64,000 nucleotides of DNA from Escherichia phage vB_EcoM_PTE-Eco05. Positions 20,301 through 59,383 of this stretch are shown one piece after another (the stretch's first letter is position 1; each line of letters starts with the position of its first letter). A model generated the notes under the pieces. That model saw nothing but the letters and a program-made list of their open reading frames with translations. It searched no databases and was not told the origin of the DNA. Location of the stretch: the sequence record PQ306573.1; one strand, 5' to 3'. A program made the position numbers and the translations under genes.

Positions 20301-21188
20301 TTCCCAAACTCTCCACAAACTAGATGCTGCATCAAAAATAAAAAGAGCATCAGCAAAATTACGTCCTTCTGCTACATGAACACCGGCTTCTCGTATAGAA
20401 GTTGTATCATCGTAAGTTTTGACAATTGTGTGATATAATGGGTTTAATTTGTCTAAATCCACTAAATTAATAATATCGCCATTATTAGCATTACGAGGCA
20501 ATGTAATATTAATAGGAGCGGCTGATGTAAAACGTCGAATGATAAAATCATTAGGTTGCGCTTGATATGGCGTAGCAGGAGTTACTGTGACTGCATTACG
20601 TTCGTAATCAGAAACATACATTTGCCATAGGCGGTTGCTAAAAATGAAGACCATTTTAGATTTTGGGTGCGTCATTAAAACTGAACGAACCTGTTGTCCT
20701 CTAAAGTTTACAATACTTTGAGCCGCTGCAGTAATTTGAACTTTTACATAGCCTACTCTACCGCCAATATCAGACAAAATAACTGTATCGCCATCTAAAG
20801 GATTTTGAGGCAAAGTGAAATTAATATCAGTGCCAGCTGAAGTATCAACCGCAATAGAGTTACCTACTGATAATTGGAAATCTCCGCCTTGAACTGTAAT
20901 CCATTCTGCATCAGCACGAGTTGCCTTCCATTTAGCCAAAGAGAAAGGGCCTGCCGGAGCTGGAATATCGCTTAAAGCTTGATAAAAACGATTATTATAA
21001 AGAACAATAAAATCTTTTGTATACGCGCGCGTCTCGTCATAATTCTGTACGGTGTTTTCTTGCACCAAAAAGTCAACGTTCACGCCATCGGTGCCAACTG
21101 TGCGGTCGGCAAGCGCAACGTTAACTATCTTATCACCGCCTGCGTCAAGACCATCTTCGGCCCTGAACTTACGTTTGATGTCAACCAT
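17355..21188 (-). CDS. 34: Long tail fibre proximal subunit gp34
   Basis: 1277 aa; N-terminus FRAEDGLDAGGDKIVNVALADRTVGTDGVNVD matches T4 gp34. Confidence 0.92.
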   Translation of the reverse strand: MVDIKRKFRAEDGLDAGGDKIVNVALADRTVGTDGVNVDFLVQENTVQNYDETRAYTKDFIVLYNNRFYQALSDIPAPAGPFSLAKWKATRADAEWITVQGGDFQLSVGNSIAVDTSAGTDINFTLPQNPLDGDTVILSDIGGRVGYVKVQITAAAQSIVNFRGQQVRSVLMTHPKSKMVFIFSNRLWQMYVSDYERNAVTVTPATPYQAQPNDFIIRRFTSAAPINITLPRNANNGDIINLVDLDKLNPLYHTIVKTYDDTTSIREAGVHVAEGRNFADALFIFDAASSLWRVWEGDQKSRLRIVRNDTDLHPNEEVLVFGTDNNTISTVNLTLPTDILSGDTVKISLNYMRKGQTVKIKAAEGDTIASSISLLQFPKRSEYPPDAQWVSVSELEFNGDTSYVPVLELAYIEDYSSETKYWVVQQNTVTVERVDASSNTTRARLGVIALASQAQANVDLENAPGKELAITPETLANRTATETRRGIARIATTAQVNQNTDFAFQDDLIISPKKLNERTATETRRGVAEVATQAETNAGTDDTTIITPKKLDARQGSEVLSGIVKYTSTTGTTAATIRGNAGTNVYNKAVDNLTISPKALDQYKATPTQQGAVILAIESEVIAGESQAGWANAVVTPETLHKKTSTDGRIGLIEIATQAETNTGTDYTRAVTPKTLNDRKATEGLSGIAEIATQVEFDTGTDDTRISSPLKIKTHFDSSDRTSVNSDSGLIEEGTLWNHYTLDISKANETQRGTLRVATQAESNAGTLDDVLITPKKLLGTKSTETSEGVIKVATQDETVTGTSANTAVSPKNLKWIVQSEPSWTATTAIRGFVKTSSGSITFVGDDTQGNTQDLNLYEKNSYAISPYELNRVLANYLPLKAKAADSNLLDGLDSLQFIRRDIDQTVNGSLSLTKQTNLSAPLVSTSTASFGSEASVTRRLTLNDSSGSEIVFTKGTQSLSNKENFVVRAWGNSATDGARDTVFEAGDETGYHFYSQRAADNKVSFNINGTLYSTGIVSTNGLNVTGVSTFTGPISATGEIVSSSPIAFRAINGNYGVMLYNAGNSSYIALTNSGDQTGTFNNLRPITINNATGLVRLDNGVQITSGATITTGGLTVNNRIISNGVQTATVYTDKPTASTVGFWSIDINDSAVYSQFPGYWTRDNKGNRDQEIKYPGTLTQFGNSLDSLYQDWICYPTGANGGSIRYTRTWQKNKDAWTSFAMVFDSGNPPSPSDVGAIPSDNAVIGNLTVRDFLQLGNVRIVPDPVNKTVKFIWVE

Positions 21189-21222: not shown

Positions 21223-21230
21223 TATTTATA
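21223..21230 (-). promoter_or_regulatory. Late promoter (TATAAATA) for gene 34
   Basis: TATAAATA on - strand ~35 nt upstream of gene 34 start. Confidence 0.6.
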
Positions 21231-21245
21231 AATGAGTAAAAGACT

Positions 21246-21308: not shown

Positions 21309-22226
21309 ATGGATTTAGAAATGATGTTGGATGAAGATTACAAAGAAGGTATTGCGCTTGCAGACTTTAGTAACATTGCATTGGCAGCTGCATTAAACAA
21401 CTTTGAAGACGGCGATAAAATTACTGTTCCGATGGTTCGCCATGTAATCTTGAATTCAATTCGTAAAAACGTAGTGATGTTCCGTAAGCAAGGCTATACA
21501 AAATTTGTATTGTGTATGGATAATGCTACTTCAGGTTATTGGCGTCGTGACTTTGCTTACTATTACAAGAAAAATCGTAAAACCGATCGTGAAGCTTCAA
21601 AGTGGGATTGGGAAGGATATTTTACTGCACTCCATCAAGTTGTTGATGAGATTAAGAAATACATGCCATACGTTGTAATGGATATTGACAAGTATGAAGC
21701 GGATGACCATATCGGTGTATTAACTAAATATTTGTCATTAGCCGGTCATAAGGTATGTATTGTTGCATCAGACGGTGACTTTACACAATTACACAAATAT
21801 CCTAACGTTAAACAGTGGTCGCCACCACAGAAAAAATGGGTTAAAATTAAGAATGGTTCTGCTGAAATTGATTGCATGACTAAAATTCTTAAAGGTGACC
21901 GTAAAGACGGCGTTGCATCTGTTCGAGTTCGTGGCGACTTCTGGTTTACCAGAGTTGATGGTGAACGAACTCCGAGCATGAAAACAACGATTATTGAAGC
22001 AATTGCCAATGACCGTTCTCAATCTGAAGTATTATTAAGTGCAGAAGAATATAAACGGTATCAAGAAAATTTGGTTCTCATTGATTTTGATTATATCCCT
22101 GATAATATTGCTTCAACCATTATAGAGTATTATAACTCATATAAACCACAACCTAAAGGCAAGATTTATTCATACTTTGTAAAATCCGGTCTTTCTAAAT
22201 TAACAAGTGTAATTAATGAATTCTGA
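21309..22226 (+). CDS. rnh: RNase H (5'-3' exonuclease / flap endonuclease)
   Basis: 305 aa; MDLEMMLDEDYKEG start and length match T4 RNase H. Confidence 0.92.
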   Translation: MDLEMMLDEDYKEGIALADFSNIALAAALNNFEDGDKITVPMVRHVILNSIRKNVVMFRKQGYTKFVLCMDNATSGYWRRDFAYYYKKNRKTDREASKWDWEGYFTALHQVVDEIKKYMPYVVMDIDKYEADDHIGVLTKYLSLAGHKVCIVASDGDFTQLHKYPNVKQWSPPQKKWVKIKNGSAEIDCMTKILKGDRKDGVASVRVRGDFWFTRVDGERTPSMKTTIIEAIANDRSQSEVLLSAEEYKRYQENLVLIDFDYIPDNIASTIIEYYNSYKPQPKGKIYSYFVKSGLSKLTSVINEF

Positions 22227-22233
22227 GGTAAAC

Positions 22234-22503
22234 ATGGCTAAGAAAGAAGCAGTTGAATTTAATCAAGATGTGCATGGTGAAGAACTGGCTAAACTAGTCA
22301 AGGAAGCTTCCGATAACAAACTTAAAATTTCTGGTTATAATGAACTGATTAAAGACATTCGTACTCGTGCTAAAGAAGAGCTTGGTGTCGATGGAAAAAT
22401 GTTTAATCGTTTGTTAGCTCTTTATCATAAAGACGCTCGTGACCAATTTGAAGCTGAAAACGAAGAGGTAGTCGAGCTTTATGACACAGTTTTCACTAAG
22501 TGA
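22234..22503 (+). CDS. dsbA: dsDNA-binding late-transcription enhancer DsbA
   Basis: 89 aa from ATG 22234 (GAGG RBS); position between rnh and 33. Confidence 0.7.
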   Translation: MAKKEAVEFNQDVHGEELAKLVKEASDNKLKISGYNELIKDIRTRAKEELGVDGKMFNRLLALYHKDARDQFEAENEEVVELYDTVFTK

Positions 22504-22819
22504 TATTAAACCGGTTGATGAGGCCGGTTTATCTGAACAAGAATTAGCAGTAAAACACGATAAAGATGATATCGCTAAATTGCTTGATCGGCAAGAAAAC
22601 GGATTTATTATCGAATCCATGGTTGAACAATTTGGTATGTCTTATTTAGAAGCAACAACTGCTTTCTTGGAAGAAAATTCTATTCCAGAAACACAATTTG
22701 CTAAATTTATTCCTACAGGAATTGTTGAAAAAATTACAAGCGAAGCAATTGACGAAAACATGCTTCGCCCATCAGTTGCTCGTGGTGAAAAAACTAATAC
22801 GTTAGATTTCTTATTATGA
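22481..22819 (+). CDS. 33: Late transcription co-activator gp33
   Basis: 112 aa; MTQFSL...ENGFIIE...TLDFLL matches T4 gp33. Confidence 0.88.
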   Translation: MTQFSLSDIKPVDEAGLSEQELAVKHDKDDIAKLLDRQENGFIIESMVEQFGMSYLEATTAFLEENSIPETQFAKFIPTGIVEKITSEAIDENMLRPSVARGEKTNTLDFLL

Positions 22820-50225: not shown

Positions 50226-51334
50226 TAGAAAGTCCCCGCATAAAGTGAAGAACGGTTTAATGTAATAATTTCTCGCATTGTTATCTCTAACGTAAATGTT
50301 GACGGTAAGTTAGGAGCAACAGCGAGACCATTAAATTGTCCATTTGGAGTTTTATCAAAACGTACGCTTTGAATTTGACACGGGCCAAATACATCAGTTA
50401 ACCCGTCAAATTTAGATGTGTGTCCAAAGTTTTTAACCATCCAAATTGTAGGGTTGCTTACAACTAATACATTTGTTAATGACGCAGTAATCTTTTCAAA
50501 CAATGTCTTATTTTTTACTGCATCGTCTGGTGTCATAGGCTCAATAAACGTTGAACGGTACCATTCGTCTAAATAACTTTTAATCTCTTGGGCGTACTGC
50601 GATTTACCAGTCTCACCATATGAGAAATAGTTAAAATACTGGTAAATGTTTATAATAGCCATAAGGTCTTCAGTTGAACGTGGAGTTAAATCCCATGTAA
50701 AGACTTTAGTACGGTTCTCAGCACCGCCATACATACTACGAGAAGTCGTATAAATCTGTTCGTTATTATCAGCCATAAGCCCTTGAGTAATAGAATCTAA
50801 TGCACCAAAAACTGCAGTAGAAGCAATGTTACTTAAAACACCCGTAGCAGTACCTCCACCTTTAGTAATAAGGCTATCACCGATATCATTAAAACGATGT
50901 GAAGTTGTATCAACGTCAGATTTGGAACGTGGCAAAAGGATATTGGCAACAGGAGTTTTATTTATAGTAGATTTATTAGCTCCAGCAGGAAGCAATCCAT
51001 TTGAGAATTTAGTCACTGCATCTTTCACATTATCAGTTAAATCTGATATGATACCATTAGATGAAGTCCCGGCATACGCCGGACGTAAATTCCTGAGGGA
51101 TCCTGAATCGCGTGCAGACATATTGTACGCGGTAAATAATAATCCATTCTTATAAAGGTCTGTTACCTGGAAGTCTCCTGTGGAGTCATTTCCGGCTGCT
51201 CTTCCTGTAGGAAATTGAGCAACATAAGTTTTAGTAGTTGTTTCGGTTTTAGTGCTTTGCCCAGCACTTTCTGAGACTGGGATTGCTTTATTTAAATCCT
51301 TTGCATCTACTACTATTTCTTTTACACTAATCAT
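50225..51334 (-). CDS. 48: Baseplate tail tube cap gp48
   Basis: 369 aa; position between 29 and 54. Confidence 0.85.
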   Translation of the reverse strand: MISVKEIVVDAKDLNKAIPVSESAGQSTKTETTTKTYVAQFPTGRAAGNDSTGDFQVTDLYKNGLLFTAYNMSARDSGSLRNLRPAYAGTSSNGIISDLTDNVKDAVTKFSNGLLPAGANKSTINKTPVANILLPRSKSDVDTTSHRFNDIGDSLITKGGGTATGVLSNIASTAVFGALDSITQGLMADNNEQIYTTSRSMYGGAENRTKVFTWDLTPRSTEDLMAIINIYQYFNYFSYGETGKSQYAQEIKSYLDEWYRSTFIEPMTPDDAVKNKTLFEKITASLTNVLVVSNPTIWMVKNFGHTSKFDGLTDVFGPCQIQSVRFDKTPNGQFNGLAVAPNLPSTFTLEITMREIITLNRSSLYAGTF

Positions 51335-51342
51335 AATAATCC

Positions 51343-53115
51343 TTAATTAACACCGGTGGCATGGAAAATTCCAGGAGCCGTTGTACTTGTTACAGGGGTC
51401 ATATTCTGGACTACGGTATTCTTTTTGACGACATTATTTGTGTTACTAATCGCCGCTACCGGTTGCTGTTGTTTAGATTCAGAAGCACGTCCTTTCTCTA
51501 TTGACTGAACTTGTTTTGCTTCCGGAGATTTAGACGAAGATTCAGGCTTAACTGTTGTCTGAGCCTTTTTGGCTTCAGCCATTTTATTATTTAGCTTTTC
51601 AAATCTAGCATCTAGTTCCTTTTTAACAACAGGAGTTTTATTAAGTTCAGGGTCTTTAATAAGTTTACTTAAATCAGCATAAGACTTCTCGACGTTTTTA
51701 GCATTTTCCGGATTAGTCATATCGATTTTATCGATATAATCCTCAAATCTAACTAGTGCCGCACGAGTTTCATTAGCTTTTATATACGCCTCTTTACGCT
51801 CCTCTTCAGGTAACTCTTTTAATTTTGCTGATTCCGCAGCACGCTCATCGCTTGTACTAAACTCTTCTTTATTGTCATTACCACGAACCCAGTTAGTAAC
51901 GAATGTTTTGCCGCGTTGTAACATATCAAGACCTTTAGAAACGGTTCCTAATTCCCCATCGTCACGTTTCATTTGATATTTAGCGACTTTCTCTTGGTCT
52001 TCTTTCTTTAATTTGTTCCCAGTAGTTTCTTGGAATCCTTCTAAAGCACGTCCTTCTATTTCGTCCGCGGTATCGCCAAAACCTATAGCACGCAATATAG
52101 ACGCAGAGAGTTTAGCCATTCCTAATTGAATTAGTTCACCTAAGTTCATTAATGCTGTTCTTACACCTTTGACAATAGCAACGGTTAAACCACCCCAGTC
52201 TCCAGCTTCCCACAATTGTTTTATAGAGTCAATAGAAGTGAATATATCACTTAAGAATTTACCCCACTCTTTAGCTTCATCGGAGAATTTAGTAAAGTTT
52301 TCATCAAATAAATCCCAGGCAGAAGTGAACTTGTCTGTCCAATATTTGAAATGGACTATCAATAAATCAATACCGATAACAATACCAAGAATAAGTGCGG
52401 CCATTTTTGCTGCTTCAATAGCAGCCGTTATAGTGTATTTGAAAAGCATTCCAGCAATTCTGTCTGAAATTGATATTGATTTATTAAACCCGGTTTGAAC
52501 TGTTTTGGTGAGCATTGCAATTTTATCGCTCAATTTAAAGCTAATTCCGCCTTTAGAATCGGAAGTAGAATTAGCACTTTCTTGAACCGGTGTTGGGAAG
52601 AAATCTTCGTCTGGCTTATTATCAATCTTTTCAGGTGTAGGGAATGCTTTAAACAACTCATCAGAAGTTTCATTCTCAACCACTTTAACAGGTATTGCGT
52701 TCTCAATTACTTCAAGAGAGGTGCCTCCTGTATTTTGAATAGCGGTAGATGTTTGTAATTTTTGCTCTAATAATGTAGCTAATCGGTCTAACTTAGAGCT
52801 TATTGCACTAGAAACTTCGTTTATACTTTTAGTGACTTCAGTTTGTTTTTCAATAACTTCTGCGATAAGCTCTGTGCCTTCAGCAGTATTATCTGTCGAA
52901 TTCTTTAAGTCTCCAATTGATTCAATAATTCCATTGCCTTTATCTTCTACACTTTGTGATGTGAGTTCAGACGCGGCTTGGACATCGTCTAGTTTTGATG
53001 AAATGTTATTCAATGCTTCTAATGAATCGGTAGCTGCATCAGCAGCTACTTTTTGTGGTTTATTATCGGCAATGACCTTATTTCTACGCATGGATTTCAT
53101 TTCTTCAGGTTTCAT
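51343..53115 (-). CDS. 29: Baseplate hub / tail length determinator gp29
   Basis: 590 aa (T4 gp29 length), extended helical/low-complexity character. Confidence 0.85.
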   Translation of the reverse strand: MKPEEMKSMRRNKVIADNKPQKVAADAATDSLEALNNISSKLDDVQAASELTSQSVEDKGNGIIESIGDLKNSTDNTAEGTELIAEVIEKQTEVTKSINEVSSAISSKLDRLATLLEQKLQTSTAIQNTGGTSLEVIENAIPVKVVENETSDELFKAFPTPEKIDNKPDEDFFPTPVQESANSTSDSKGGISFKLSDKIAMLTKTVQTGFNKSISISDRIAGMLFKYTITAAIEAAKMAALILGIVIGIDLLIVHFKYWTDKFTSAWDLFDENFTKFSDEAKEWGKFLSDIFTSIDSIKQLWEAGDWGGLTVAIVKGVRTALMNLGELIQLGMAKLSASILRAIGFGDTADEIEGRALEGFQETTGNKLKKEDQEKVAKYQMKRDDGELGTVSKGLDMLQRGKTFVTNWVRGNDNKEEFSTSDERAAESAKLKELPEEERKEAYIKANETRAALVRFEDYIDKIDMTNPENAKNVEKSYADLSKLIKDPELNKTPVVKKELDARFEKLNNKMAEAKKAQTTVKPESSSKSPEAKQVQSIEKGRASESKQQQPVAAISNTNNVVKKNTVVQNMTPVTSTTAPGIFHATGVN

Positions 53116-53645
53116 TCAAGCAATCCAATAATTTCTGCTATACCCTTAATAGGACCATTAGGGCCGGGAATAGCAATAGTTGTCGAAAGGTCTTCTGCCC
53201 ATTTGATTACAAAAGCAGGCATCTCAAGGAAAGAAATTTCTTTCTCTTCGTCATTAACTTTTATTAAGCAATTTGATAGCATTTCACTGATTGTAGCGAA
53301 TTGTTCAAATTTGCCTGGGGGTCTAAAATAAAAAGTATTACCTTGAAATTGGAATTCTGTTCGTTGGCATACATAGACGTCATCTAGTCTATAAGTGAAT
53401 CCATCTTTTTCAACTTCAGACTTAAGTTTGTTATTAAATTCCAATATGTGTAGACATGCAAAATCAAAATCTGCGGGACTCATATTTTTACAAATAGAAT
53501 CGGCTAAGATTTTCATGTTTTCGTCAGGACCTTTAACGTCCTTTAAAAGATTATAATGTTTGAGTCCAAATTTGGGAATCATTACTTTTTTATTAGACTG
53601 TGGTAGAATTATTTTCTTTAGAGGTAGAATCAGATTTAAGTTCAT
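53112..53645 (-). CDS. 28: Baseplate hub distal subunit gp28
   Basis: 177 aa (T4 gp28 length). Confidence 0.8.
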
Positions 53646-54765
53646 TTTTAACCTTAACTGGGTTAACAGGTTCTAACACCATTGAGTTGGTAAACATGTA
53701 CAGATGAGTTTGTGAGTTGTTATTTGATAACTCATGAATAACTTCATCTACGTAAAATTCGGATTTGAATTGGTTCTTTTGGTCGACAAATATAATTTTA
53801 GTAGCAGGCGTTATGTTAAAATTACCTGTAGTAGTGCATTTAGCATATCCATCATATTGAGCCATTGTCTGAAGACGACTTGCTTCTTCAAATCCATTAC
53901 GATAGGTCATTTCAGAATATCCACCGGATCTTGACACAAGAATAGCATTATCACCATCGCCTGTAACAATAACCGGAATAGATGTATCTAAAAATGAATG
54001 AGCGAATATCGTGGCGTTTTTAATAGGGTCTCGTGTAAATTGGTTAGCTTTAGTCATCCAGGTGAAATCCCATACTAATGGATACTCAAGCTCTTGAATA
54101 TACTGACCTACGGTATTTGGCTCGCCTACAACCATCTTAATGCCTTCCTGACCAATAAGAGTATCGTAGTCAATCATGTTTACGCCTAAAATATCTTGCC
54201 ATACGAATACGAACTTATCACTCGCTGTAGCAAGTCCTAATTCTCTGACATATGCCAAATAATCATCAAATGTGCTTGTCCAAGGAATATCAGGAACATA
54301 AGCATTAATAGTGTTTATTGGCGGAGTAATTAACGTACGGTCTTTATATATGACACCTAACATTTCACGTATAGATTCTCCTGCGTCTGGGAAGAATGGT
54401 CGCCCAAATTTAAGGTTCTCTATAGAATGTATTGTTCCAAGCTCAATTGCAATAATATTGTCGCCTTTTGAGTCCACAGACACAGAATAATGTCTACATC
54501 CGTAAATTCGAGTTCTAACTTGGAGAGGTGTGTTTGAATTTGAAACAGAGATTTGGACTATCTGTCTACCATCCATTTTAGTGTGGATGTTTTTAGTGTC
54601 ATAAAATTGAAGAATCCCTTCATTTCTTCCATATAACGAATCTCGCATGGTTAAAGTTGTTATTGTTGCCGCGAGTTCAACGTATCTATTTTCTTGCCAA
54701 GCCGAATAATCTTGATATAATTTAACGCTTAAGTTAGGATATCCTGGACGTTGGAATACTGTCAT
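53593..54765 (-). CDS. 27: Baseplate hub subunit gp27
   Basis: 390 aa; position and length. Confidence 0.85.
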
Positions 54766-55514
54766 TTTTTATGGTCCTTTTCTACTAATGTTAAAGCAAT
54801 ACCACGTTCAACAGGAATCATTTGCATAATAGAATCCAATGTGTATTGACTCTTTACTAGTGAATGGTTTATCTGATAGAATGTAAAAATCTCATCAGGG
54901 TTAACTAACAATTTAAAAACCTCTAAGATATCAGTATATGTTTTAACATGACGTTCACAACAACCTAATCTAAGGGTCAAATTAATAGGATTCATAGAAG
55001 CAATAACCTTCTCGAGCGAGTCAATGTCTATTGCTTCTATTACTTGGATTTGGTTCTCTTCAGTCAAATCATTCCATGGGTACCATTCATCATTATAATA
55101 TATTTCTTTTATGTTTTCACTTATCATTAATGCCTTGTTGTCATAAAACTTTTCAGGGAAAGAAAAACGTATTTTTATACCAGCAACATCAAGTTCAGGT
55201 TCGACTAGTTCTTTTTGATATATCTCAAATGGTGCAGTTTTTTCTTTAGAGCATTTAGGGCAAGTGAAAATAACGGGAACTTTTGTTTTGCCTATAGAGC
55301 CTGCAAAAACTTGCAGGAATATAAATGGTTGCCATGTTTTAGGGTATTCGTTAAAATAATCATCAATCAGATCGGCAATTATTTCTTTTTGTTCTTGTGG
55401 CGAACGATGTTCGATATCATTTCTAACTAGTAAAAAGTCTCTATAATCCGCTACGGTGAACGGCTTGAAACGATGAACACCATCCGGTAATTTACAACGA
55501 ATTATATTAGCCAT
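54762..55514 (-). CDS. 51: Baseplate hub assembly catalyst gp51
   Basis: 250 aa; divergent from gene 26. Confidence 0.8.
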
Positions 55515-55531
55515 AATTACTCCTTTTCTAT

Positions 55532-55543
55532 TATTTATAAATA
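55532..55543. promoter_or_regulatory. Palindromic divergent late promoter shared by genes 51 (-) and 26 (+)
   Basis: TATTTATAAATA is a perfect palindrome containing TATAAATA on both strands. Confidence 0.65.
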
Positions 55544-55561
55544 CACAATAAAGGAGTTAAC

Positions 55562-56188
55562 ATGTACAAATATACGTTTACCGTACGTTTAGGCGATAAA
55601 GAAGTGAATTGTAGAGCCTTTACTTTAAAAGAATATTTAGGACTCATAGGTGCGCGGGCTACCGGTACTATTGAATCAGCAGTGAACAATATTATCACTA
55701 ATTGCTCTAACGCTAAAAACTTGACTAAACAAGAAGCCGAGTTATTGTTGGTAAATCTGTGGGCACATTCATTAGGTGAAGTGAATCAAGAACACACCTG
55801 GAATTGTTCCTGTGGGCATTCATTTCAAGTCTATATGAATTTATTGCACACTCAATTAGATGAACAGGCCGATCCCTGGTATTCGTTTAGTGGTATTAAA
55901 ATTAAGTTCCGTCAACCTAAATTATTTGACGATAAAAATATCGCATTAATGATTGCTTCATGTATTGAGGCCGTTTTTGTCAATGGAGAGTCCATCCCTG
56001 TTGAAGATTTAACTGAAGCAGAAATAAACGACCTTTATGGCCTTATAACGGAAGATGACATGATCAATATTAAAAATCTTTTAGTATCACCATCAATTTA
56101 TCTAGCAACCCCTATTAAATGTCCCAAATGTGGGGCGTCACACGTTCACACAATACGAGGCCTCAAAGAATTCTTTGAGTTACTATAA
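55562..56188 (+). CDS. 26: Baseplate hub subunit gp26
   Basis: 208 aa (T4 gp26 length); AAGGAG RBS. Confidence 0.8.
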   Translation: MYKYTFTVRLGDKEVNCRAFTLKEYLGLIGARATGTIESAVNNIITNCSNAKNLTKQEAELLLVNLWAHSLGEVNQEHTWNCSCGHSFQVYMNLLHTQLDEQADPWYSFSGIKIKFRQPKLFDDKNIALMIASCIEAVFVNGESIPVEDLTEAEINDLYGLITEDDMINIKNLLVSPSIYLATPIKCPKCGASHVHTIRGLKEFFELL

Positions 56189-56586
56189 TGTCTAATATCA
56201 ATAAACTTTATTCAGATATCGACCCAGAAATGCGTATGGATTGGAACAAGGACGTTGCTCGTTCTGTAGGACTTCGTTCTATTAAAAATAGTCTTCTTGG
56301 CATAGTGACAACTAGAAAAGGCTCACGCCCCTTCGACCCTGAATTTGGATGCGATTTGGTTGATGAACTTTTCGAGAATATGACACCACTTACAGCCGAT
56401 ACGATTGAGCGTAATATCCAGGCAGCTGTTCGTAACTACGAGCCACGCATCGACAAACTTTCTGTAAGTGTAACGCCAGTATATGATGACTATACGGTTA
56501 TAGTAGAGATTAGATTTTCGGTCGTAGACAACCCTGACGATATTGAACAAATTAAACTTCAGTTAGCGTCAAGCAATAGAGTGTAA
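56188..56586 (+). CDS. 25: Baseplate wedge protein gp25
   Basis: 132 aa; MSNINKLYSDIDPEM start as in T4 gp25. Confidence 0.88.
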   Translation: MSNINKLYSDIDPEMRMDWNKDVARSVGLRSIKNSLLGIVTTRKGSRPFDPEFGCDLVDELFENMTPLTADTIERNIQAAVRNYEPRIDKLSVSVTPVYDDYTVIVEIRFSVVDNPDDIEQIKLQLASSNRV

Positions 56587-56666
56587 TGCTTCAAGGCAAC
56601 CTATGTATAATGGTTTTAGGTCCTTCCGATACAGCCGGGAGATTATTAGTTAAAAGAGAGAATATT

Positions 56667-57080
56667 ATGAAGCTGGAAGATTTACAGGAAGAGTTAGACG
56701 CAGACTTAGCTATTGATACGACAAAGTTGCAATATGAGACGGCGAATAATGTTAAGTTATACAGCAAATGGCTACGTAAGCACTCATTTATTCGTAAAGA
56801 AATGTTGCGTATAGAGACTCAGAAGAAAACTGCTCTAAAAGCAAGATTAGACTACTACTCGGGACGAGGTGACGGTGATGAATTCAGTATGGACCGATAC
56901 GAGAAATCTGAAATGAAAACTGTCCTGGCTGCAGATAAAGATGTGCTTAAAATAGAGACTACTTTACAATACTGGGGAATTTTACTTGAGTTCTGTAGTG
57001 GTGCACTTGACGCAGTTAAATCTCGTAGTTTTGCACTTAAACATATCCAGGATATGCGAGAATTTGAAGCGGGGCAATAA
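56667..57080 (+). CDS. uvsY: Recombination mediator UvsY
   Basis: 137 aa from ATG 56667; strong match to T4 UvsY (LEDLQEEL, KLQYE, ANNV, LRIE, KARLDYYSGRGDGDEFSMDRYEKSEMKTVL). Confidence 0.88.
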   Translation: MKLEDLQEELDADLAIDTTKLQYETANNVKLYSKWLRKHSFIRKEMLRIETQKKTALKARLDYYSGRGDGDEFSMDRYEKSEMKTVLAADKDVLKIETTLQYWGILLEFCSGALDAVKSRSFALKHIQDMREFEAGQ

Positions 57081-59333: not shown

Positions 59334-59362
59334 GTCAAATTACCATGTAATAAATATAGTTA

Positions 59363-59370
59363 TATTTATA
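59363..59370 (-). promoter_or_regulatory. Late promoter (TATAAATA) for uvsW
   Basis: TATAAATA on - strand 30 nt upstream of uvsW ATG. Confidence 0.55.
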
Positions 59371-59383
59371 ATGAGGAAATACC

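Follow-up and report, generated by a model that had tools for sequence, protein, structure and literature searches.

Overlapping divergent late promoters were reportedly mapped in the baseplate gene cluster of phage T4 by Scarlato, Storlazzi, Gargano and Cascino in 1989 (Virology 171:475). A search of the open-access literature found no paper citing this work or describing overlapping or bidirectional late promoters, and the site has no promoter annotation in the T4 sequence record (NC_000866). The T4-type late promoter itself is defined by a single 8-bp box, TATAAATA, in which an A is tolerated at the first position, and which spans positions -13 to -6 relative to the transcription start (PMC1524935, PMC2988020). 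The gp55-containing polymerase recognizes this box only, and its activation requires both gp33 and the sliding clamp gp45. In the promoter complex, the clamp takes up the upstream end (PMC2988020). The orientation of the clamp fixes the polarity of the promoter that can be activated, and this orientation is set by the strand that carries the nick or the primer end (PMC2988020). Within the T4 baseplate cluster, genes 25, 26, 51, 27, 28, 29, and 48 all belong to the late class according to RNA-seq (PMC9697503 Table S2).

Promoter pairs of this kind are also present in the annotation of other T4-like phages. In RB69, Nolan et al. 2006 predicted two late promoters, Pl:118620(+) and Pl:118672(-) (PMC1524935, Additional file 5), which bracket the 26/51 intergenic region at 118623-118669. 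In phage SA35RD (OL960577.1), two opposite-strand late promoters are annotated exactly at the site. Both sets of calls are computational, and neither is accompanied by a comment on a palindrome or on an overlap. Other overlapping +/- pairs listed by Nolan et al. in RB49, RB43, and Aeh1 were considered as further cases of the 51/26 junction and rejected, as they sit at the orf/34, orf>34, and 4/tail-tube-cap junctions. Among them, a palindrome occurs only in Aeh1, at the gene 4/tail-tube-cap junction, where the pair was predicted as Pl:122785(+) and Pl:122835(-); this phage has CTAAATA as its late consensus (Nolan et al. 2006, PMC1524935). The head-to-head late boxes of this pair lie between divergent late genes and form the perfect palindrome TATTTAGCTAAATA.

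The closest described system outside the phages is the bidirectional promoter of bacteria. Warman et al. (2021, 2026) described sigma-70 promoters in which a near-symmetric element of the -10 type allows the polymerase to be bound either way. In such promoters, the elements overlap on opposite strands and the divergent starts are 7-25 bp apart (PMC10268837). One binding event at a symmetric promoter excludes the other, and this competition matters only at high promoter activity (PMC10268837, PMC12825309).

The stretch of DNA analysed here (the window) comprises 64,000 nucleotides of Escherichia phage vB_EcoM_PTE-Eco05 (PQ306573.1). It belongs to an RB69-like Mosigvirus, and the region under study is 97.6-99.3% identical to about 150 Mosigvirus genomes. 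The 12-bp palindrome located between its genes 51 and 26 very probably represents two head-to-head gp55-dependent late promoters of the T4 type, referred to as P51 and P26. The overlapping divergent late promoter pair is an already known feature and, because it has been described before, an ordinary one in this phage family. The coordinates of the elements of the junction and of the genes on both sides are given in Table 1.

Table 1. Coordinates, within the window, of the palindrome, the late boxes, the predicted starts, and the flanking genes.
Feature	Position	Strand	Remarks
Palindrome TATTTATAAATA	55532-55543	both strands	own reverse complement; two head-to-head late boxes with TATA in common
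Shared central TATA of the two late boxes	55536-55539	both strands	4-bp overlap of the boxes
Late box TATAAATA of P26 (gene 26 promoter)	55536-55543	+	perfect match; taken as -13 to -6
Late box TATAAATA of P51 (gene 51 promoter)	55532-55539	-	perfect match; taken as -13 to -6
Late transcript start of gene 26, predicted from box position	55549 +/- 1 nt	+	leader ~13 nt
Late transcript start of gene 51 (an A), predicted from box position	55526	-	leader ~12 nt
Shine-Dalgarno AAGGAG of gene 26	55551-55556	+	5 nt before ATG
Shine-Dalgarno AAGGAG of gene 51	55520-55525	-	5 nt before ATG
Gene 26, baseplate hub protein	55562-56188	+	208 aa; PF12322, E 4e-60; heads the rightward unit
Gene 25, baseplate wedge	56188-56586	+	PF04965; directly downstream of 26
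uvsY	56586-57080	+	PF11056; downstream of 25, same strand
Gene 51, baseplate hub assembly protein	54762-55514	-	250 aa; PF12322, E 4e-59; heads the leftward unit
Gene 27, baseplate hub	53593-54765	-	PF09097, PF09096; downstream of 51
Gene 28, distal hub subunit	53112-53645	-	annotation of relatives; downstream of 27

The site had first been described in a sequence-only reading as a perfectly palindromic late promoter serving the divergent baseplate genes 51 and 26. Both of its observations on the motif are confirmed: positions 55532-55543 of the window carry TATTTATAAATA, identical to its own reverse complement, and a perfect TATAAATA is found in each orientation. The gene names and the divergent start positions that accompanied them proved exact, as judged from the open reading frames, their PF12322 matches, and the RB69 annotation. 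The geometry of the palindrome follows from the late box itself. Its first four bases, TATA, are self-complementary, so two boxes facing each other can have them in common; the pair cannot be packed into less than 12 bp if both boxes are to stay perfect. The boxes end 17 and 18 nt before the start codons of gene 51 and gene 26, respectively, and stand 5′ of the orthologues of gp51 and gp26, which are late gene products in T4. Two boxes sharing TATA between divergent genes 51 and 26 correspond to the arrangement of the P51/P26 pair of T4.

In T4 itself (NC_000866), the same 12-mer occupies the 51/26 junction among the same neighbouring genes in the same order, and both operons are late. The two loci differ in their surroundings: the intergenic region is 50 nt long in T4 and 47 nt here, T4 has a longer leader on the side of gene 26, and the surrounding DNA is about 72% identical. 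The intergenic sequences of RB69 and of the near-identical genome OL960577.1 are the same as that of the window, and the P26 box falls within Pl:118672 of RB69, while the P51 box falls within Pl:118620. The palindrome of Aeh1 is likewise perfect and separates divergent late genes, but it belongs to another junction, extends over 14 bp, and its core hexamers are 2 bp apart, whereas those of the 12-mer abut.

The positional rule of the late box (-13 to -6) would place the two starts 23 bp apart, just upstream of the ribosome sites and 12-13 nt before the start codons. The order of the elements on the - strand is TATAAATA-ATAGA-A(+1)-AAGGAG-TAATT-ATG, and on the + strand TATAAATA-CACAA-T(+1)-A-AAGGAG-TTAAC-ATG. 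The six nucleotides after the box are ATAGAA on the 51 side (5/6 A/T) and CACAAT on the 26 side (4/6), the latter being less A/T-rich than is typical of late promoters. The mean A/T fraction after the box in the 14 intergenic types described below is 0.81 on the 51 side and 0.68 on the 26 side, against 0.62 for the genome. A scan of the site found no sigma-70-type promoter or terminator above chance. A sigma-70-type promoter was rejected as a candidate here, with three scan matches against 2.0 expected and none positioned for gene 51 or gene 26. A cruciform or other structural element was also rejected, from the sequence: the 12 bp of A/T have no loop, and the sole longer inverted repeat is formed by the ribosome sites and start codons. 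This repeat (I2) is 80% matched between 55512-55526 and 55550-55564, with the palindrome at its centre.

The symmetry of the junction extends to the proteins encoded on its two sides. Both flanking open reading frames contain the PF12322 domain (T4_baseplate; 'T4 bacteriophage base plate protein'). In RB69 and related phages, they bear the annotations gp51 and gp26, and gp26 of the window is 100% identical to that of RB69. The proteins gp51 and gp26 are paralogous (25% identity over 214 aa, E 4e-11), and their genes are placed in mirror-image orientation around the palindrome, which suggests an ancient inverted duplication. No duplication scar is claimed at the DNA level, because beyond the 12-mer only the Shine-Dalgarno sequences and the ATG codons are symmetric. 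Among the genes of the rightward unit, uvsY has a middle promoter of its own annotated in OL960577.1.

The exact 12-mer occurs once in the window, compared with a mean of 0.01 copies in 100 dinucleotide-preserving shuffles. The single late box is a less exceptional motif, with 12 perfect copies of TATAAATA in the window against 7.7 expected, a total reached by 10 of the 100 shuffles and not significant alone. The placement of these copies is far from random. Non-coding DNA makes up 8.2% of the window and holds 11 of the 12 perfect boxes (binomial P ~1e-11), which stand 7-147 nt or more upstream of genes; measured against the background of all-A/T 8-mers, the bias is still at P ~1e-8. Inside genes, about seven boxes are expected from the shuffles and one is seen, and the late box therefore appears to be avoided in coding DNA, where it would give rise to stray promoters. 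The sole intragenic copy is situated within gene 48 (50959-50966, - strand), 733 nt before gene 54, for which it might be an internal promoter; it is missing from the list of RB69 late promoters by Nolan et al.

The conservation of the junction was examined in representatives of several groups of T4-like phages: T4, fPS-2, Karamvirus, Gelderlandvirus, Moonvirus, Marfavirus, Jiaodavirus, Gaprivervirus, and Dhakavirus, as well as the Acinetobacter phages 133, Acj61, and Bhz15 and 26 IMG/VR contigs found via gp26 alignment. Roughly 1200 phage genomes encode gp26. The exact 12-mer is located between divergent genes 51 and 26 in every sampled T4-like locus from the phages of enterobacteria and Acinetobacter, and it is kept across genera in which gp26 is only 31-62% identical to that of the window. 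When identical sequences were collapsed, 14 distinct intergenic types were obtained. In this set, the majority base is present in 100% of types at all 12 positions of the palindrome, whereas its share drops to 61% and 57% in the 12-bp flanks, where all four bases occur directly beside the palindrome. The divergent 51/26 arrangement is absent in cyanophage S-T4 and in Nitratidesulfovibrio phage SRB7757, and these two genomes are therefore uninformative.

In more distant clades, the head-to-head TATTTA/TAAATA cores are retained at other spacings. The Aeromonas and Stenotrophomonas phages 31.2, AhFM11, and IME13 carry the 10-bp palindrome TATTTAAATA at the junction, in which the core hexamers overlap by 2 and each box reads TTTAAATA, with a T at -12. 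In the Krischvirus JEP8, the boxes are separated (TATTTATAaaaTACTAAATA), the cores are 8 bp apart, and the symmetry is broken with the late-type boxes kept. The core spacing thus takes the values of -2 (Aeromonas/Stenotrophomonas), 0 (the T-even 12-mer), +2 (Aeh1, where the junction is another one), and +8 (JEP8). Position -12 of the box seems to hold a clade-specific base (A, T, or C), and these differences may track differences in gp55.

The spacing series bears directly on the possibility that a dimeric protein uses the palindrome as its operator, be it as the main role of the site or as an added one, with the symmetry selected for binding. Perfect dyad symmetry is typical of dimer operators, and the exact spacing is invariant in T-even and Acinetobacter phages to a degree that a pair of independent promoters would not require. 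A candidate ligand would be DsbA, which is encoded in the window and is reported to bind, with low affinity, A/T-rich sites overlapping two late promoters (PMC2988020). Several observations speak against such an operator, which is very unlikely. In Krischvirus, the symmetry is lost but the late-type boxes remain, and in Aeh1 the palindrome changes exactly with the late consensus of that phage. The conserved block stops exactly at the edges of the boxes in the 14 types, and dsbA is, besides the low affinity of its product, reported to be a non-essential gene (PMC2988020). The palindrome tracks the consensus of each phage and can be broken without loss of the boxes, as expected of two promoters and not of a dedicated dimer operator.

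Another explanation assumes a single working promoter at the junction. In this scenario, the second box would exist only as a side effect of the palindromic sequence, with its gene expressed from another start. A variant box, TATAAATG, does lie at 55320-55327 on the + strand, 240 nt upstream of gene 26, and the record NC_054943.1 annotates the + promoter alone. The pattern of conservation is difficult to reconcile with a passive box. The quartets that belong to one box only (55532-35 and 55540-43) are as invariant in the 14 types as the shared TATA, while the neighbouring bases vary. Both boxes therefore appear to be under separate selection, because the unshared bases are invariant too. In addition, each of the two genes heads its operon and has only an opposite-strand gene upstream, no sigma-70-type promoter above chance is present, and both operons are late in T4. 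A single working promoter is accordingly regarded as highly improbable. A chance palindrome in a genome of 62% A+T, or a dead relic of the 51/26 inverted duplication, to which the mirror-image paralogues and the 80% inverted repeat of the translation-start regions might point, has a practically negligible probability, as a shuffled window contains 0.01 copies of the 12-mer on average and the motif is invariant across genera with strongly diverged gp26, the similarity of the arms is confined to the Shine-Dalgarno and the start codon, and a functionless relic is ruled out because it would have decayed like the flanks.

The comparison of clades, with its invariance in one group and its other spacings and consensus in the rest, speaks for two functional boxes and for a palindrome that results from the packing of promoters and not from a separate operator. 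The initial claim that a palindromic late promoter serves genes 51 and 26 is supported by several lines of evidence: the perfect boxes in their AAGGAG/ATG context, the invariance in 14 types, the annotation of OL960577.1, the RB69 prediction, and the T4 12-mer together with the late RNA-seq class of its genes.

With the 12-mer read as two divergent late promoters, the following course of events can be proposed. Late in infection, the host RNA polymerase with gp55 and gp33 would read the box in either orientation and open the DNA just downstream of it. P26 would fire rightwards into genes 26, 25, and possibly uvsY, and P51 would fire leftwards into genes 51, 27, 28, and onwards. The predicted leaders of 12-13 nt would run directly into the AAGGAG-N5-ATG ribosome sites. 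Oppositely oriented gp45 clamps may drive the two operons, so that the orientation of the clamp would set the direction of each firing. Among the factors involved, the late co-activator gp33 is encoded in the window at 22481-22819 (PF16805, E 3.5e-26). The window does not encode gp55 and gp45, the genes of which would not be expected in this region.

By analogy with the symmetric bacterial promoters, the occupancy of P51 and P26 by the polymerase is probably mutually exclusive. Judging from the geometry of the site (compare PMC12825309), two open complexes could not coexist, because their overlap would be almost complete. This affects the earlier suggestion that a shared element couples the expression of the two baseplate hub operons. 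The suggestion holds in the sense of shared late timing; a physical coupling is likelier to be competitive than cooperative. A more far-reaching proposal is that the zero-gap packing of the two core hexamers has been frozen in T-even and Acinetobacter phages as a mutually exclusive toggle, in which the arriving face of the gp45 clamp would select the operon that fires. Such a toggle is improbable. If it existed, the ratio of 51-operon to 26-operon transcripts would depend on the direction of the replication forks or on the nicked strand at the locus, and the clades with spacings of -2, +2, and +8 bp would have adjusted forms of this device.

Considered as a promoter, the site may be regarded as a natural gp55 counterpart of the recently studied bacterial bidirectional promoters. 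Its predicted start spacing of 23 bp falls within the 7-25 bp range of the latter, in which the commonest spacing is 18 bp. The two systems also differ in other respects. First, recognition depends here on gp55 and an 8-bp box at -13 to -6, without a -35 element. Second, activation depends on the sliding clamp, the orientation of which determines the polarity. Third, both transcripts are mRNAs of essential structural operons. The locus is of little import beyond annotation, as it shows that an RB69-like phage keeps the canonical late promoter arrangement of the T4 baseplate hub genes. Small additions are the breadth of the 12-bp invariance, the spacing series among clades, and the parallel with the bidirectional promoters of bacteria.

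Several other sites of the window deserve a mention. The divergent uvsW (-)/inh (+) junction at 59334-59383 contains one perfect late box, at 59363-59370 on the - strand, 29 nt before uvsW. The inh side is without a matching late box, and the divergent junctions of this genome are thus not all palindromic. The gene 34/rnh junction carries TATTTATAAATG at 21223-21234, a copy of the palindrome with one mismatch. Its - box is perfect and faces gene 34 (long tail fibre, PF21446), which starts at 21188 on the - strand. The other half, TATAAATG on the + strand, is directed towards rnh (+ strand, 21309) and is probably not a promoter. The gene dsbA (22216-22503, + strand, PF11126) overlaps gene 33 (22481-22819, + strand) by 23 nt, and the conserved dsbA-33 overlap was noted as unexplained in a review of late transcription (PMC2988020). 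Finally, the stop codon of gene 26 and the start codon of gene 25 overlap in the sequence ATGA at 56188 (window positions 56185-56190). According to Malys and Nivinskas 2009, as cited in PMC3014915, the 26/25 junction of T-even phages contains a split Shine-Dalgarno sequence with an intervening RNA stem.
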